Virus record (IMG/VR): IMGVR_UViG_3300045988_146535
DNA: 36,473 nucleotides
Strand: one strand, 5' to 3'
Source: a virus
Taxonomy: Duplodnaviria; Heunggongvirae; Uroviricota; Caudoviricetes
Shown here: in pieces, positions 3,070-25,519 of the stretch
How the letters are laid out: the number at the start of each line of letters is the position of its first letter
Position numbering within the stretch: the first letter of the stretch is position 1
The notes under the pieces: generated by a model
What the model was told of the DNA's origin: nothing
The model's database searches: none
The model's input: only the letters and a program-made list of their open reading frames with translations
Position numbers and translations under genes: made by a program

Positions 3070-4118
3070 GAAATCGTCCCCAGTACCGCCAGTTCATTTT
3101 TTGCAATGGAGATATTGTCTGCCGGTGCAAGCAACTGATGGCTGTATTCCCCGTTCGCACCGGAAATCGCCTCACTGATACGCGATACCTTCAGTTCTCC
3201 CTGCGGATAACCATCACGCAGCAGGAACGAACGCAACTCCGCGGTGATGGCAGCCCGTATTTCCGGTGTGTCCGGCGTCACGCGGATATGAAAATCCACC
3301 GTATGTGCCACCGGCCTGAACACATACAAATCAGAGCCTGCCACCGGGGCCAGTGGCCCGATATGTTGTCTTGCCGCCGTTTCCGTTGATTCTTCCGGAA
3401 TGGGATTAATCAGGTCACTGCTGGCAATCATCACACCGACAGTTCCCGTTCCCATCCAGTGACGGTATGTCCATGCGCGGGTAATGCCGGGCACTTCTTT
3501 AGCCCAGACGACATAGTCCCCGTCAGCCCCGCCCTGCGGCGTCCAGTAATACCGCTCAATGACGCGGGCGCGCCACGTTTCCAGCTCTTCAGTATCAAAT
3601 CCGCCTGTCAGGGTGTCAGCCACACCGGAAGACGGCAGACCATTCACCGGCGTGACCAGGATTAATGCCGTACCGTCGTCAGCGTTACCGACCGCGCCTG
3701 CACTTGAGCAGGCGATCGGCACGCGCAGGACACCACCGGAGCTGGTTGCATCGGCAGTTGCCGTGTACTGAACCAGGTCATCGCGCTGAATAACACTCCC
3801 GGCGGTCACCTTCAGGCCATCGCTGACACCTTCCCAGCGCATATACCCGCTGGCAGCCGTGGCCCCCTTGCGCGGACACCGTTTCATCGCAGCATGTCGC
3901 GCCAGCCAGGACTCATCGCACAGGTCAGGCAGCATGTTCATTGCCAGATAATCGATGTACCCGTAAACCGTATGCAGCGCCGCCGCATACACCTTTGCCC
4001 GCACGTCTTCATCCATGCGCCGGAGCGTGTCGCTGACGTCCAGCCTGGCGAATAAATCGTTACGGAGCATACTGATATTTTCTGCCAGCGTCGGGCGCTG
4101 AAATTCACTGTCCGCCAT
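3060..4118 (-). CDS. Baseplate J-like protein (Mu gp47-like)
   Basis: 352 aa; position and size in the Mu-type baseplate module. Confidence 0.65.
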
Positions 4119-4533
4119 GCGTTATCGCACTCCACAGATCATCAAAAGAAATCATTACCGGTCCGTCACGACGCCAGAGGGTGATACTGTTACCCAGTTC
4201 ATTAATCCCGGTGCGGCGGATATCCAGATCAATACGGGACACCACGCCGTCATCAATCATCCATTGCAGGCATTCGCGGATATACCCCCTTACCGTCAGC
4301 ACCAGCTGATTGGTCAGTTTGCTGCGCTGAAGCAGCCACAGTCGGGAGCCGTAACGGTCATTCTGTACCGCAGGCCAGGTATCCCCCCACCATCCCATCG
4401 GGACGTCGGCGTTGTCATCAGGCTCCGCCCGCCGCCAGGTAAACAGGGAAATCACCACGGCGCGGGTCAGCGGATCCAGCGGTGCGCTGGCGCAGGTGCG
4501 TTTACCGTTCACCGTCAGCCACAGTTCCATCAT
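4105..4533 (-). CDS. Baseplate protein (Mu gp46-like)
   Basis: 142 aa between the gp45-like and J-like genes. Confidence 0.6.
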   Translation of the reverse strand: MMELWLTVNGKRTCASAPLDPLTRAVVISLFTWRRAEPDDNADVPMGWWGDTWPAVQNDRYGSRLWLLQRSKLTNQLVLTVRGYIRECLQWMIDDGVVSRIDLDIRRTGINELGNSITLWRRDGPVMISFDDLWSAITHGGQ

Positions 4534-5078
4534 GCCTCCATCGCTTTATCAGGTTTGTCGGTGTTACTGCCCTGACCGTTCTCTCTGTGACGATGCCCGT
4601 TATAGGCAAGCCGCATCGCTGACATGGTGGTGCCGCTGGAGTCGCACAGGTCTTTCACCTGTCCTGTCACTTCCAGGTCCATTTCAAAACGTGCTTTAGG
4701 TGAATTGCGAAACGTGATCGTTTTACCTGCACCGTCCACCACGATCCCCTCCCGGGTCAGCGTCACGGACTGCCCCTGATCGTCATAGACAGCCACCTCA
4801 CCAGTCTGCAGCCCTTTCAGGCGGTAGCGCCGGTCCGACACCGTAACAACCACCGCATGAGAACGGTCACCATCCGGAAACAACACCACCGCTTCCGCAC
4901 CGCTGTTTGCTCTTGCGGTAAAACCGTAGGGTTCAAGATGTTCAACCCCGGCTTTGGGTTCACCGGCAATCAGGGACACATCCACGGTCTGACATTTCGT
5001 GGCGGCACTGATGCTTTTCACCACCGCCCGCCCAATCAGGCCGAGGAGTTGTCGCTGTATGGTTTCAATCGCCTTCAT
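4530..5078 (-). CDS. Baseplate assembly/spike protein (Mu gp45-like)
   Basis: 182 aa; overlapping stop/start coupling with neighbours. Confidence 0.6.
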   Translation of the reverse strand: MKAIETIQRQLLGLIGRAVVKSISAATKCQTVDVSLIAGEPKAGVEHLEPYGFTARANSGAEAVVLFPDGDRSHAVVVTVSDRRYRLKGLQTGEVAVYDDQGQSVTLTREGIVVDGAGKTITFRNSPKARFEMDLEVTGQVKDLCDSSGTTMSAMRLAYNGHRHRENGQGSNTDKPDKAMEA

Positions 5079-6157
5079 CAGAACGGGTCCTCCTGTACTC
5101 TGGCTTTTTTCTTTTTCCGCGCGCCGGGGGCTTCGGGTTCAGGCAGATAAGCATCAGGTGGGCCGACACGGATTTCCGTCAGGGTGCCATTCTGGTCCTG
5201 AGTAAACGTGACTTCCGAGACAAGCAGTTCGGTATTGTCGAAACCACAGACCGGATCGAAGACAATCACCCGCTGGTTGGGCTGCCACAGCGTACCGTTA
5301 CCCTGTCGCCAGCCCTGCACCACATAGGTGGTTTCATCCGTCCGCGCCGCCCGTTGTCGGGCTTCAAAGTCAGCACGCGCAATACAGCCTGCCCCCGTAG
5401 CCTGCCCTGTCTGCCTGATATACATCGGACGGTAACGGGCAATAAATGCATCCTCTGTGCGGGCCCGCAGCGCGGTGGTGGTGGCCTCACCGAAATCATC
5501 GTCGTTTCCGGCACGCTGCCCCGCCACCTGGTAAACTGAAAACCGCTCCCGGATACTCTTCTCCGTATCACAGGAAAGGATGTTTTCCCCAAGTACCAGC
5601 GCGGTATGTGCCTGCGTTGAGCCAATACCACCAATCACCAGCCTGCCGTGCGGGTCGTCATAAGCCAGCGCCTGCTGCTGACCGAGTATTTTGTTGATCA
5701 CCTCGATCACCGTTTCACCGTGATCAGGCTGGACATCCGGAATAACACCCGACGGCGCATCGCTGTTCACCACCTCAATGCCGAAAGGCGCAGCAAGCGC
5801 CTGCGCAATCTGTACCAGCGATCGTCCGTTAAACTGTGTCGGTTCGGCTGCACAGTCAATCAGGTCAGCAGTCAGACTACGTCCGGCAATACCGGTGCTG
5901 ACCGAACGGGCATCGTAACGAACGGGGGTCGCCTCCACCCAGCCGGTGATCACCAGCTCATCACCAATCAGCACTTCCACTTTTGAACCATTTTTAATGC
6001 GCGGCTGAAGCGTGGTGATACCCTCATCACCCGGCCACTGGCGGGTGATCTCCACGCTGAAATCCCGCGCCAGCCGTTCAATACCGGCACCGATGCGCAC
6101 CGATGTCCAGCCATTCCACTCCCGGCCATTTACCCGTAGCGTGACATTGTCGTTCAT
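5078..6157 (-). CDS. Baseplate hub / tail protein (Mu gpP-like)
   Basis: 359 aa; position after the DNA-circulation gene. Confidence 0.6.
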   Translation of the reverse strand: MNDNVTLRVNGREWNGWTSVRIGAGIERLARDFSVEITRQWPGDEGITTLQPRIKNGSKVEVLIGDELVITGWVEATPVRYDARSVSTGIAGRSLTADLIDCAAEPTQFNGRSLVQIAQALAAPFGIEVVNSDAPSGVIPDVQPDHGETVIEVINKILGQQQALAYDDPHGRLVIGGIGSTQAHTALVLGENILSCDTEKSIRERFSVYQVAGQRAGNDDDFGEATTTALRARTEDAFIARYRPMYIRQTGQATGAGCIARADFEARQRAARTDETTYVVQGWRQGNGTLWQPNQRVIVFDPVCGFDNTELLVSEVTFTQDQNGTLTEIRVGPPDAYLPEPEAPGARKKKKARVQEDPF

Positions 6158-20846: not shown

Positions 20847-21440
20847 CTAAAATATGGATGTTAAATAATTGCTAAGTCTTTTTGCATTCTTACAGAATGC
20901 CAAAGCATCTTCCTGAGTACATAAGAGCTTTCCTTGGGATATAGGCTTAATAGACTCTCCTGTTTTTTCATAGAGCTTAACAATGTCACTAGAAATTTTG
21001 TTTGCAGATTGGACATTTTTCAAGGCAGCGATACCTGAAGCCCGCCCTAAAGATGTCCCGTTGATCTCAATCCCCTTTTTAGATGCAAGCGTTATAGCGG
21101 TTAACTCCAATTCGCGCCAAGCTGAAAGTACAGCAACATTAGGCTGAGTACTAGCAAGACTCTCAAAAATATTGAAATTCTCAATGAGTTGAGTCGGCAG
21201 GACAGGATTTGTTCCAGGTAAATTTTTAATAACCTCTATACTTTTAGATTCTATTTCAAACATTTCTTTTTTAAATTTAATCTCATAGTCACCTAGCTTA
21301 ACTGTATTAAGACGACCTAAAACCATTATTATTTCTTTTTTTAAAGTAAAAAAGACAATCAAACAAGCAAGAACAATAAATAAAACATTGCCTTCTTTAA
21401 GAAGCATCTCTATCCAGTAAAAAAAAGTATAGTCCGTCAT
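20847..21440 (-). CDS. Membrane-anchored hypothetical protein (moron downstream of the lysis cassette)
   Basis: 197 aa; N-terminal transmembrane segment LFIVLACLIVFFTL; visibly AT-rich. Confidence 0.6.
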   Translation of the reverse strand: MTDYTFFYWIEMLLKEGNVLFIVLACLIVFFTLKKEIIMVLGRLNTVKLGDYEIKFKKEMFEIESKSIEVIKNLPGTNPVLPTQLIENFNIFESLASTQPNVAVLSAWRELELTAITLASKKGIEINGTSLGRASGIAALKNVQSANKISSDIVKLYEKTGESIKPISQGKLLCTQEDALAFCKNAKRLSNYLTSIF

Positions 21441-22632: not shown

Positions 22633-22959
22633 TTACTCCTTCGAGCTACCAAATTTGTTACCGATTACTCGCATTGCAGCCCCACGAATAGCATCGACAC
22701 CGATCAGCCCAACGCCGCCACCAATGGCAACAGAAAGCGATTTAGGCCATCCGACATACTCAAGAGCGGATGCAAAAGTCAGCGTCAGAGCACCACAGAG
22801 CAAAATCTCGAGCGTTTTTCGTTTCCAGCCACCACCACTGCCAAAATAGGCAATACGTAAACCAGCCATAACGATCGACATAATCACTGCGCCCAGCGGT
22901 GTGTCTCCACGCCACCAGCTCTGGACCAACTCCAGCCAGGTATTTGGGTTATGAGGCAT
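22633..22959 (-). CDS. Holin
   Basis: 108 aa with hydrophobic transmembrane segments, immediately upstream of the endolysin. Confidence 0.7.
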   Translation of the reverse strand: MPHNPNTWLELVQSWWRGDTPLGAVIMSIVMAGLRIAYFGSGGGWKRKTLEILLCGALTLTFASALEYVGWPKSLSVAIGGGVGLIGVDAIRGAAMRVIGNKFGSSKE

Positions 22960-23178
22960 TTGTAGTTATCTCTCACCTCGCCGATACAGGAGGTGCAAAT
23001 TGAGGGAGTACCACGAACCGCAAATCAGAAGCGGAAACGTAAAAGAAGCCGAGCCAATGGATAAGTACTAGATAGAACAAGCCCAACGAATACCAAGGCC
23101 CAGAAACGACAAAACCCGCTCAATGGCGGGTTTAAGCTGTGTGGCGACGTAACCACTCTTAACACGATACAATACTTT

Positions 23179-23207
23179 TTGCGTACGCGTTAGCATTTTA
23201 GTAATAT
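23179..23207 (+). promoter_or_regulatory. Candidate sigma-70 promoter for the accessory operon
   Basis: TTGCGT (23179-23184), 17-bp spacer, TAATAT (23202-23207), about 30 bp upstream of the ATG at 23241. Confidence 0.3.
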
Positions 23208-23240
23208 TCTGAAGTACGTTTATCTATTGAATCTATACAA

Positions 23241-24350
23241 ATGAAGAAAATCGAAAAACTGTTCACTGAAGTAATACGGAAGTTGCGCCATAAGAAATTT
23301 ATGCGCTCGATAGCTAGTAAAAGAAGCACAACAGAAAGAAAGCTAAAACGTAATGGAAGTTTAAAAAAAATCGCTCCAGAGAAAATACTTGCTCCAACCA
23401 TACTTGATATTTACAAGGCGGAATATCATGAGAATGTGGTTAATTTTATAGAAAAAATAGAAAACAAAGCAAAGACAGGAAATAAAAAGATATATATATG
23501 TTTTAGAAATACAATTCATATATCGGCTGCTGCTGGCTTATTTCTTCTTGCAAAACTAGAGACGTTAAAAAGCAATCATAGGGACTTAAAATATATCGTA
23601 GCCAAACCGCCAATCAAAACTTCATCAAAAGGAGAACAGCACGTTGTTGATTCTGTTTTGAACAGAATCGGAATCTATGCAGCATTAGGTGTTAAATCAA
23701 GAGAAATGAGAGAAACTCCGTCTGTAAAATGTTGGGAGGTAATTCGTGGCGAACTAGTAGATTCGGAAATTGCAGGAAACTTATTAGAAACAATCACAGA
23801 AAAAATGGGTACCGATTATACAGATTTATATCGTCCCTTGATAGAAGCCATGTCTAATTCAGTAGAACATGCATATCGAGACGATTTATATGACTCAAAT
23901 AAAAATAACAATAAAAATAAATGGTGGTGCTTTGCTGCAATTATGAACAACAAGTCAATTATGAACAACAAGTTAATATTACTAATTTGTGACCTCGGTG
24001 TAGGTATACCTAAAACGTTAAAACTTACTCAAGGTGAAAAGGTTCTTGCAAAGCTAACCGAGTTCCTTGGTAAGCCATTAGTCCTTGATTCAGAACATAT
24101 AAAAGCCTCATTGCAGGTTAAACGAACCCGAACAAAGCTTGGATACAGAGGGAAAGGAGGAACTGATTTACAATCTATCATAGAAAACTTTGAAAATGCA
24201 CAATTACGAATTATATCCAACAAAGGAAATTACAGATATACTCATCGTAAGAAAGCAAGACCAGAGTTAATGTGGGATGCCAAACATTCCATCAACGGTA
24301 CTATAGTTGAATGGAGCGTACCGCTACCAAATGAAGGAGACTCTCAATGA
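23241..24350 (+). CDS. GHKL/HATPase_c-type ATPase (RsbW-like serine-kinase fold) with an uncharacterised N-terminal region
   Basis: 369 aa; N-box-like EAMSNSVEHAY, G1-like ICDLGVGIP (DxGxG) and G2-like GYRGKGGTDL; visibly AT-rich; opposite strand to the flanking late genes. Confidence 0.6.
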   Translation: MKKIEKLFTEVIRKLRHKKFMRSIASKRSTTERKLKRNGSLKKIAPEKILAPTILDIYKAEYHENVVNFIEKIENKAKTGNKKIYICFRNTIHISAAAGLFLLAKLETLKSNHRDLKYIVAKPPIKTSSKGEQHVVDSVLNRIGIYAALGVKSREMRETPSVKCWEVIRGELVDSEIAGNLLETITEKMGTDYTDLYRPLIEAMSNSVEHAYRDDLYDSNKNNNKNKWWCFAAIMNNKSIMNNKLILLICDLGVGIPKTLKLTQGEKVLAKLTEFLGKPLVLDSEHIKASLQVKRTRTKLGYRGKGGTDLQSIIENFENAQLRIISNKGNYRYTHRKKARPELMWDAKHSINGTIVEWSVPLPNEGDSQ

Positions 24351-24664
24351 AAACCTTATTTATCAAGGACTTTTCAAGATTCCCGGGGCCTAGATACGAA
24401 AGGTTAGGTGAAAACAGTGGCGAAAAATTCCGCGATTTATTTTTGATACCAGCACTTAACGAAAATCCAGACTTAGTCATTGACTTTGATGGTGTTTTTG
24501 GCTATGGCTCATCTTTCCTTGAGGAGGCCTTTGGAGGTTTGGTGCGTAAAGGGATAGAGCGCGAAAAATTGGAGAAGCTTAAGAAGAATCTCAAAAGTAA
24601 AGATCAATACATTATTGAGGAAGTAATTTCATATATTGATGATGCTCTGCGAGATCTAAAATAA
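24347..24664 (+). CDS. STAS-like small protein (DUF4325-like, anti-sigma-antagonist fold)
   Basis: 105 aa; VIDFDGVFGYGSSFLEEAFGGL matches the DUF4325 core pattern as I recall it; start overlaps the stop of the upstream gene. Confidence 0.5.
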   Translation: MKTLFIKDFSRFPGPRYERLGENSGEKFRDLFLIPALNENPDLVIDFDGVFGYGSSFLEEAFGGLVRKGIEREKLEKLKKNLKSKDQYIIEEVISYIDDALRDLK

Positions 24665-25125
24665 TGGACACTGACGTTACTCAGAATTTATGGACAATGC
24701 CTGCAACGATTATAGCGATTGTTGGCATTTTTTTAACAATATTAGGCTGGATAGTTACAGCAATACTTACTCGCATTAACAATGCGAAGAATTTAAAAAA
24801 ACTAGAAATAAATAGACTTATTGATGAGTTATTTTATAAATTAGATTTTATTTATAGCGAAATGCTTGAATTGCTGCGAGACGATAAAAAAGACAAACAA
24901 GTCCTATATTACATTTTTACATCATCAGTAAGGCATGTTGAGTTTATTTGCGAGCGAATTGAACTATTAGACAACAAAAAAAACAAAGACAATGGATTAA
25001 TATCTGAATTAAGACAAGCATGTACTAACGATGCGAAATATGAAAAAGAAAAAATTGGAACAACATTACATGAAATCCAAAGCGCTAATGAAAAACTCAA
25101 AAACAAATATCTGAAATCATTTTAA
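24664..25125 (+). CDS. Membrane protein (one N-terminal transmembrane helix, charged coiled-coil-like C-terminal region)
   Basis: 153 aa; transmembrane segment ATIIAIVGIFLTILGWIVTAILT; ATGG overlap with the upstream stop. Confidence 0.55.
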   Translation: MDTDVTQNLWTMPATIIAIVGIFLTILGWIVTAILTRINNAKNLKKLEINRLIDELFYKLDFIYSEMLELLRDDKKDKQVLYYIFTSSVRHVEFICERIELLDNKKNKDNGLISELRQACTNDAKYEKEKIGTTLHEIQSANEKLKNKYLKSF

Positions 25126-25131
25126 TTAAAA

Positions 25132-25157
25132 AAGAACCGGCTAAGCCGCCGGTTCTT
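25132..25157. terminator. Bidirectional intrinsic terminator between the accessory operon and the Q-like gene
   Basis: AAAAAA-GAACCGGC-taagcc-GCCGGTTC-TTTTTT; A-run and T-run flank a GC-rich stem. Confidence 0.7.
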
Positions 25158-25159
25158 TT

Positions 25160-25519
25160 TTAATTTATTACACAAAGGCAGCCTTCAATAAATCCAATGG
25201 CCATTTGTAATTCTTTTCTAATTGTACCATCAGAATACTTCCTCTTTTTAGCAATAGCACGAAGTGAGATGCCAACAACAAAGTGAGCAATTATCAGCTC
25301 ATACTCTTCCGGCTTATATTTACGCAACCTAGCCACACAACTATCTATCATGATGCCTTCATCATCATCACACTGGAGACGTGACTTTTTACCGTGTGGT
25401 AAAAGTCCCTTGAAACCAGCCGCTATCGGCTGCCAGTCCACACCACTGTTATCTGCTGCCGCCCATGCTCCCCAGCGGTCCAAAACTTCATACATATCAC
25501 GCATCAACCTTCTCCACAA
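25160..25519 (-). CDS. Putative late-gene antiterminator (Q-like)
   Basis: 119 aa; position between the replication/accessory early genes and the lysis cassette; HTH-like LRKYKPEEYELIIAHFVVGISLRAIAKK. Confidence 0.45.
   Translation of the reverse strand: MWRRLMRDMYEVLDRWGAWAAADNSGVDWQPIAAGFKGLLPHGKKSRLQCDDDEGIMIDSCVARLRKYKPEEYELIIAHFVVGISLRAIAKKRKYSDGTIRKELQMAIGFIEGCLCVIN

Follow-up and report, generated by a model that had tools for sequence, protein, structure and literature searches.

Two experimentally studied immune systems provide the frame for the locus described here. In the first, CapK, a kinase composed of helix-turn-helix (HTH), STAS and GHKL domains, is switched on by single-stranded DNA (ssDNA) as well as by DNA damage, and phosphorylates the STAS protein CapS; in the second, VapKSC, the STAS-GHKL kinase VapK has been proposed to phosphorylate S48 of VapS and so to set free the PIN toxin VapC, and the operon protects by about 2 logs against phage Bas42 (Chambers et al., EMBO J 2026, PMC13373217). 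Both kinases contain an aromatic residue for ssDNA stacking, W68 in CapK and, as proposed, F54 in VapK (PMC13373217). An earlier census of PIN proteins included a VapC group coupled to DUF4325 genes (PMC5499597). Here, we analyzed three adjacent genes, denoted A, B and C, at positions 23241-25125 of a 36,473-nucleotide stretch of DNA (the window) from a virus of the class Caudoviricetes (IMG/VR record IMGVR_UViG_3300045988_146535). CapK/CapS and VapKSC are the closest experimentally studied systems to this trio, which is most likely an uncharacterized relative of this recently described kinase-controlled immune system. Full-text literature searches (STAS or DUF4325 combined with phage defence) returned no paper describing the trio. 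As the preliminary description of the locus had it, no named anti-phage system can be assigned, and PADLOC does not name the trio.

The three proteins and their relation to VapKSC

The genes, and the parts of A that can be distinguished, are as follows.

23241-24350, + strand: gene A, STAS-GHKL serine-kinase-like protein of 369 amino acids
23241-23375, + strand: A residues 1-45, strongly basic helical extension (17 K/R and 3 D/E in the translation)
23376-23750, + strand: A residues ~46-170, STAS-like domain with Ala at the canonical phospho-serine site (motif FRNTIHISAAAG)
23763-24326, + strand: A residues ~175-362, GHKL (Bergerat) kinase domain with N, G1 and G2 boxes
23938-23977, + strand: 18-bp tandem duplication, 2.2 copies (CAATTATGAACAACAAGT), detected with TRF and in the sequence
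24347-24664, + strand: gene B, DUF4325 STAS-like protein of 105 amino acids
24664-25125, + strand: gene C, single-pass membrane protein of 153 amino acids

In A, a basic N-terminal helix precedes a STAS-like domain, which is fused to a GHKL kinase domain of the SpoIIAB/RsbW type. The preliminary description had recognized HATPase_c-like N, G1 and G2 boxes in this protein and missed its own STAS domain; the boxes are borne out by alignment and by structure comparison. A hits no Pfam family at E<=1 and does not reach the gathering threshold of HATPase_c (PF02518/PF13581). Precomputed PF13581 or PF02518 matches are present in only 4 of the 96 clusters of A homologues. In an alignment of 35 homologues, E202, N206, E209 and H210 of the N box (EAMSNSVEHAY) are invariant, and the same alignment contains the G1 (D251-L-G253-V-G255) and G2 (R303-G304-K-G306) boxes. 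The fold is GHKL by structure comparison, with true anti-sigma factor kinases as the best structural matches. The STAS motif has alanine where the antagonists carry the phospho-serine, and the N-terminal extension is modelled with helices at residues 2-7 and 10-28, its basic character being retained across the homologue alignment. Other searches were uninformative: the PDB sequence search with A yielded only marginal matches (RsbW, E 0.069), PADLOC-DB v2.0.0 returned a chance-level match to Cas6b (E 0.0026, 15.6 bits), and nothing meaningful was found in Pfam or NCBIfam for either A or C.

The window allele of A has a peculiarity. The in-frame duplication adds the residues IMNNKS to a hairpin between the N box and G1, and this insertion is found in no aligned homologue; the copies in Escherichia coli genomes, otherwise 99.2% identical, are 18 bp shorter over the queried stretch, so that A has 363 amino acids in PSUO2. 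In the model, the predicted local distance difference test score (pLDDT) falls below 50 at residues 237-241, in the region of the insertion. For this particular allele, the insertion could be either neutral or disabling.

The assignment of B to the STAS/DUF4325 fold, made earlier from the sequence, holds: DUF4325 (PF14213) is its sole Pfam match, at 2.8e-15 and 56.2 bits against a gathering threshold of 23 bits. The motif LDGxxGYGSSFLEEAFGG is conserved over 41 orthologues, with S56 invariant and S55 present in 37 of the 41; the C-terminal helix that comes after the motif is acidic and likewise conserved. Alignment with the B profile pairs S48 of VapS with S55. Judging from the alignments, S55/S56 (codons 24509-24514), which lie near the canonical position, are a candidate phospho-acceptor. 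The PDB sequence search with B was again marginal (E 0.12 for a STAS protein, E 0.15 for VapS), and PADLOC-DB v2.0.0 contained no match for B or C. Given that B covers only positions 342-439 of the PHROG 5816 profile, which is 441 positions long, some phage proteins carry DUF4325 at the C terminus of a much longer chain, possibly as a fused sensor and switch.

C, likewise anticipated as a single-pass membrane protein, has one N-terminal membrane helix. Its hydrophobic segment lies within residues ~11-34, with the best 19-residue window beginning at residue 16, and in the 99%-identical E. coli copy no K/R precedes this window and four follow it. The AlphaFold2 (AF2) model (pLDDT 84) consists of helices at residues 11-72, 78-102, 110-126 and 131-148; the topology of this single-pass membrane protein is N-out/C-in, and the four-helix bundle is cytoplasmic. 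T121 (codon 25024-25026) is near-invariant, with a retention of at least 90%; phosphorylation of C at this residue is a further possibility. C evolves fastest, with a mean column identity of 19% compared to ~40% for A and B. It belongs to PHROG 34309, and no PIN match was detected in Pfam or NCBIfam.

Set against VapKSC, the trio has the same gene order, namely, a kinase, a small STAS protein and a third protein. VapK, like A, combines a fused STAS domain bearing a non-phosphorylatable residue at the acceptor site with a GHKL domain; VapS, like B, is a DUF4325 protein (2.7e-17 and 2.8e-15, respectively) with the aligned serine; and the conserved C-terminal helix of B is another point of likeness. 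Profile-profile comparison with hhalign connects A with VapK (6.4e-4 over 230 columns, covering both domains) and with CapK (6.5e-5 over the STAS domain, N box and G1), and B with VapS (2.8e-4). There are also differences: the third gene of VapKSC encodes a PIN nuclease whereas C spans the membrane once; ~45 residues at the N terminus of A form an additional basic helix that is lacking in VapK; and the trio is mainly phage-borne and cI-linked, a setting that PMC13373217 does not mention. The possibility that A is a close homologue of VapK or CapK was considered and rejected, the HMMER profile scores being 12.7, 9.9 and 8.7 bits.

A conserved unit, often behind the repressor gene

The trio recurs elsewhere as a conserved cassette, a point that had been suggested for verification. 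A scan of one genome per species identified 41 A loci in Gamma-, Beta- and Alphaproteobacteria, Flavobacteriales and Campylobacterota. In 40 of the 41, A and B lie side by side, and an iterated C profile places a C-family gene directly after B in 38 of 42 loci; in the 3 Campylobacterota loci, the third gene is small and unmatched, encoding an N-terminal hydrophobic segment followed by a K/R-rich stretch. Among IMG/VR viral contigs, 76 carry A, and ABC is complete in 73 of these, the remaining 3 being cut by contig ends. Thus, the trio travels together in all assessable phage loci. The family is large: an exhaustive profile search retrieved 3266 A cluster representatives (50% identity) at E<=1e-3 and 829 at E<=1e-30. 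All three proteins are matched in PHROGs, by families 3364, 5816 and 34309, each of unknown function. In E. coli, the trio is found in 6 of 5426 complete genomes, at 99.2% identity, where the products are annotated as hypothetical, STAS-like and hypothetical. Megablast against GenBank phages gave no match to the cassette, and tblastn found only Marinobacter phage AS1.

The genes preceding the trio form a clear pattern. The gene immediately upstream is co-directional with the trio in 64 of 75 viral contigs, and in 51 of these less than 150 nt separate the two; its product is a Peptidase_S24 repressor in 30 of the 75 and belongs to Phage_CI_repr in 8. In the genome loci, 9 of 10 upstream genes picked by hand encode CI-type repressors, and a wider genome survey that considered two upstream genes per locus yielded 8 S24 and 3 Phage_CI_repr proteins. 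In the isolated phage AS1, cro is followed divergently by AS1_42 (Phage_CI_repr, 1.4e-7) and then by AS1_41, AS1_40 and AS1_39, which are A, B and C. The gene table of Francisella phage KIRK lists consecutively a CI repressor, a 293-amino-acid protein, a DUF4325 protein and a transmembrane protein, and phage AS1 is the sole match listed for the 293-amino-acid protein (PMC7924643). In other phages, the trio is usually located directly behind the CI repressor gene rather than in the slot that it occupies in the window. This position is that of rexAB in lambda; in the window, moreover, the trio shares its strand with the cI homologue ymfK and the integrase gene, and together these features suggest expression in the lysogen. 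The cassette is a mobile phage-borne module that is probably expressed in the lysogen.

In the IMG/VR contigs, an open reading frame of ~330-370 amino acids is often found downstream of the trio, on the - strand in many cases. It may encode an integrase, which would put the trio between cI and int.

The cassette in the Q-holin slot

The window is a complete lambdoid-type (e14/CPS-53-like) prophage with every lytic gene on the - strand. The features surrounding the trio are the following.

22633-22959, - strand: holin gene, left neighbour, lambda-family (Pfam Phage_holin_3_1, 6e-25)
23000-23209, - strand: conserved ~200-bp segment upstream of the holin gene, left hotspot flank (E. coli genome survey)
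23133-23112, - strand: terminator-like hairpin inside the left flank (terminator scan)
23210-25180, + strand: variable cargo cassette comprising the trio, the terminator and the last ~7 codons of Q (blastn against siblings; GC content)
25124-25165, both strands: bidirectional intrinsic-terminator-like hairpin of 42 nt, between the convergent genes C and Q (34-nt gap)
25160-25519, - strand: late antiterminator gene Q, right neighbour (Pfam Phage_antitermQ, 1.2e-46)

The main traits that had been read from the sequence alone are confirmed. The three open reading frames on the + strand are coupled, the stop codon of A overlapping the start of B as ATGA, with GGAG 9 nt upstream, and the stop codon of B overlapping the start of C as TAATG. 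The trio is antisense to its neighbours, given that both the holin gene and Q are on the - strand, and the 1.97-kb cassette between them is AT-rich, with a GC content of 0.29-0.40 over 23200-25200 compared to 0.50-0.58 in the flanks. The strong bidirectional terminator, too, is retained: the hairpin at 25124-25165 folds with a free energy of -24.7 kcal/mol on the + strand and -26.1 on the - strand (z -8.0 and -7.2, respectively), and none of 200 shuffled sequences was equally good. The best promoter candidate found by eye, TTGCGT-18-TAATAT, has 7 of 12 matches only and is not claimed here as a promoter.

The borders of the cassette were defined by blastn comparison with 8 sibling E. coli prophages, which are 90-97% identical to the window as far as ~23200-23209 in most cases. 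On the left, homology stops at 23164-23209 in the 8 siblings, and at 23199-23209 in 6 of them; on the right, it restarts at 25181/25182 in 4 siblings and, within Q, at 25403/25458 in 3, the right breakpoint of the eighth being outside the locus compared. Given that sibling homology ends and restarts at its borders, the segment 23210-25180 is a swapped cassette. The left flank (23000-23209) is present in 322 of the 5426 complete E. coli genomes, at 85-100% identity.

The earlier view of this site as a cargo hotspot is upheld by what the siblings carry there. With the same breakpoints and orientation, their cargo in the Q-holin slot includes Kiwa (KwaA, 1.9e-83; KwaB, 2.3e-150, by PADLOC), a 1050-amino-acid PDC-S60 metallophosphoesterase, an NTPase of the KAP family, a protein with a TIR domain, a Clp-fold serine protease of the SDH family, and a TIGR04255 protein along with two hypothetical proteins. 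The slot is a genuine hotspot for cargo, and known defence genes reside in it in the siblings.

Several side observations concern the same region. The left flank may be a late promoter and tR'-type region, which would put the cargo slot between Q and the late promoter; a consensus scan of the - strand in this flank found no promoter. In E. coli FDAARGOS_144, the slot (3742-5305 of its locus) contains an overlapping pair of genes for proteins of 343 and 179 amino acids that has no PADLOC match and is another defence candidate. Elsewhere in the window, a second AT-rich cargo gene (20847-21440, - strand; GC 0.31-0.39), located between the Rz/lysC genes and the HNH endonuclease gene, encodes a 197-amino-acid protein with a hydrophobic N-terminal segment that belongs to PHROG 30030, a family of unknown function. 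Near this site, the siblings carry KilA-N and DUF6979 genes, a GrlR-family regulator, iss, or two hypothetical genes, so that the region looks like a second variable slot.

A proposed switch, its alternatives and the known systems

We consider, with moderate confidence and on the strength of the combined analysis, that the trio functions as a kinase-gated abortive-infection or superinfection-exclusion system. By analogy with VapKSC, unphosphorylated B would keep the cytoplasmic domain of C inactive in the undisturbed lysogen, and an infection cue, conceivably ssDNA or some other nucleic acid to which the basic tail and the STAS/GHKL groove bind, would switch on A. Again as in VapKSC, A would then phosphorylate B at S55/S56, and B would release C. 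The freed C might oligomerize and perturb the inner membrane, by damaging or sealing it, such that the phage is stopped at the expense of the cell, or else block phage entry. We put this model forward as an inference only, given that the kinases A and VapK are very distant and the counterpart of F54 is variable.

Several results weigh against this interpretation. The A profile scores VapK at 12.7 bits (HMMER; E 0.48 at PDB-size Z) and RsbW at 15.4 bits, so that A is only remotely related to VapK, and scores no better with it than with RsbW. The proposed ssDNA-stacking residue of VapK, F54, aligns with H93 of A, in a variable column (H/Y/F/T/K/M/R and others). The candidate promoter that the preliminary description had ascribed to the operon is unverified, given that a consensus scan of 23134-23240 detected no sigma-70-like site with >=9/12 matches. 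The six-residue insertion might impair the kinase encoded by the window allele. Finally, among the 130 open reading frames neighbouring the non-phage genome loci, few matched a methyltransferase, a restriction enzyme, PbeA, MADS or PD-Lambda-5, so that defence-island enrichment at these loci, where defence-gene neighbours are present but sparse, is weak.

Alternatively, the trio might serve the life cycle of the prophage itself, with a damage- or stress-sensing kinase tuning induction, lysis timing or lysogeny maintenance; C would be a component of the holin or antiholin kind or one for membrane signalling. The trio adjoins the CI repressor gene in about half of the viral contigs and the lysis cassette in the window, and DNA damage, which activates the related CapK (PMC13373217), is the same signal that induces S24 repressors. 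We nevertheless regard this scenario as unlikely: the trio is dispensable and swappable, being carried by 6 of 5426 E. coli genomes, compared to the 322 in which the flanking segment accompanies other cargo; its transcription runs against that of every lytic gene, and a bidirectional terminator insulates it; and its slot-mates are defence genes.

A role in lysogenic conversion, whereby A would be an RsbW-like anti-sigma or partner-switching kinase acting on a host regulator, B its antagonist, and C only an anchor or sensor, seems to us to have the same low probability. This role would fit the structural affinity of A with true anti-sigma factor kinases, the resemblance of B to the antagonists of such kinases, and the small size of C, which has no recognizable toxic fold. 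However, no sigma factor or PP2C phosphatase is encoded in the cassette or the flanking genes, nor does either appear among the top families in the neighbour surveys; the extra STAS domain and basic tail of A are both lacking in anti-sigma kinases; and the spread of the trio over phages of many hosts argues against a single, specific host regulator as the target.

Slightly less probable still is that C is a constitutive, non-killing superinfection-exclusion protein of the inner membrane that prevents DNA from entering, with A and B only adjusting its activity or level. As a membrane protein encoded in the immunity region, C resembles the classical Sie-type proteins; its N-out/C-in topology is compatible with such a role, and its fast evolution (19% compared to ~40% mean identity) is as expected of a protein that meets phage components. 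However, the kinase and the phospho-acceptor are strictly retained with C in every locus, which argues for triggered rather than constitutive activity. As for the suspicion that the window copy is an inactive remnant, raised by the in-frame 18-bp duplication in the kinase domain that is unique to the window, it is highly improbable, given that the three open reading frames are intact and coupled, the insertion is located in a surface hairpin turn, and the rest of the cassette is 99.2% identical to the copies in six other genomes.

Returning to the kinase-gated system, a wider proposal, plausible but tentative, is that the trio founds a large unnamed family of the immunity region of temperate phages, a phosphorylation-gated membrane effector that would be the functional counterpart of RexAB in many phages of Proteobacteria; in the same proposal, the kinase would sense a cue and the DUF4325 switch would release a one-helix protein that collapses the membrane or blocks entry. 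If so, the kinase-STAS switch of CapK and VapK would be a general, effector-swappable sensor module that is carried by phages themselves. If the trio is active, a membrane protein would join the transcription factor (CapKS) and the PIN toxin (VapKSC) as a third output, and the GHKL-kinase/STAS switch would be widespread in temperate phages, at the classic site of exclusion genes behind cI, in hosts ranging from Enterobacterales to Campylobacterota and Francisella. As all three proteins are of small size and easy to handle, with N206, S55/S56 and T121 as targets for point mutation, the system could help to reveal which cue a kinase that senses infection recognizes and by what means a membrane protein with a single helix halts a phage. 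Further candidates, such as the FDAARGOS_144 pair, can be drawn from the Q-holin slot.

How, then, does the trio relate to the known systems other than VapKSC? CapK/CapS shares with A and B the succession of a STAS-GHKL kinase and a STAS protein with a conserved serine. However, CapK has an N-terminal HTH where A has a basic helix; the C-terminal winged HTH of CapS, which represses a downstream immune operon, is lacking in B, a protein of 105 amino acids; and C is followed by a terminator, with no immune operon downstream. The partner switching of the SpoIIAB/SpoIIAA and RsbW/RsbV type likewise relies on a GHKL serine kinase with N, G1 and G2 boxes, but A has a STAS domain of its own, and the trio includes a membrane protein as the third partner. 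RexA and RexB resemble the trio in position, given that the latter follows cI immediately and in the same direction in at least 38 of the 75 viral contigs, and both systems pair a cytoplasmic sensor with a membrane protein. The resemblance does not extend to the sequences (searches of Pfam and PHROGs return no Rex match) or to the number of genes, two in RexAB and three here; RexB has four membrane helices, and C has one. Kiwa, which shares both the Q-holin slot and the orientation of the trio in sibling prophages, also combines a membrane protein with a cytoplasmic partner, but neither A nor B nor C has a PADLOC match to KwaA or KwaB. The preliminary description had put the locus forward as a candidate novel module: the literature searches indeed returned no description of the trio, but because CapK/CapS and VapKSC share the logic of a kinase and a DUF4325/STAS protein, it is new at the level of a variant only, namely, a kinase-STAS immune switch that is joined with a membrane protein and has temperate phages as its main carriers.

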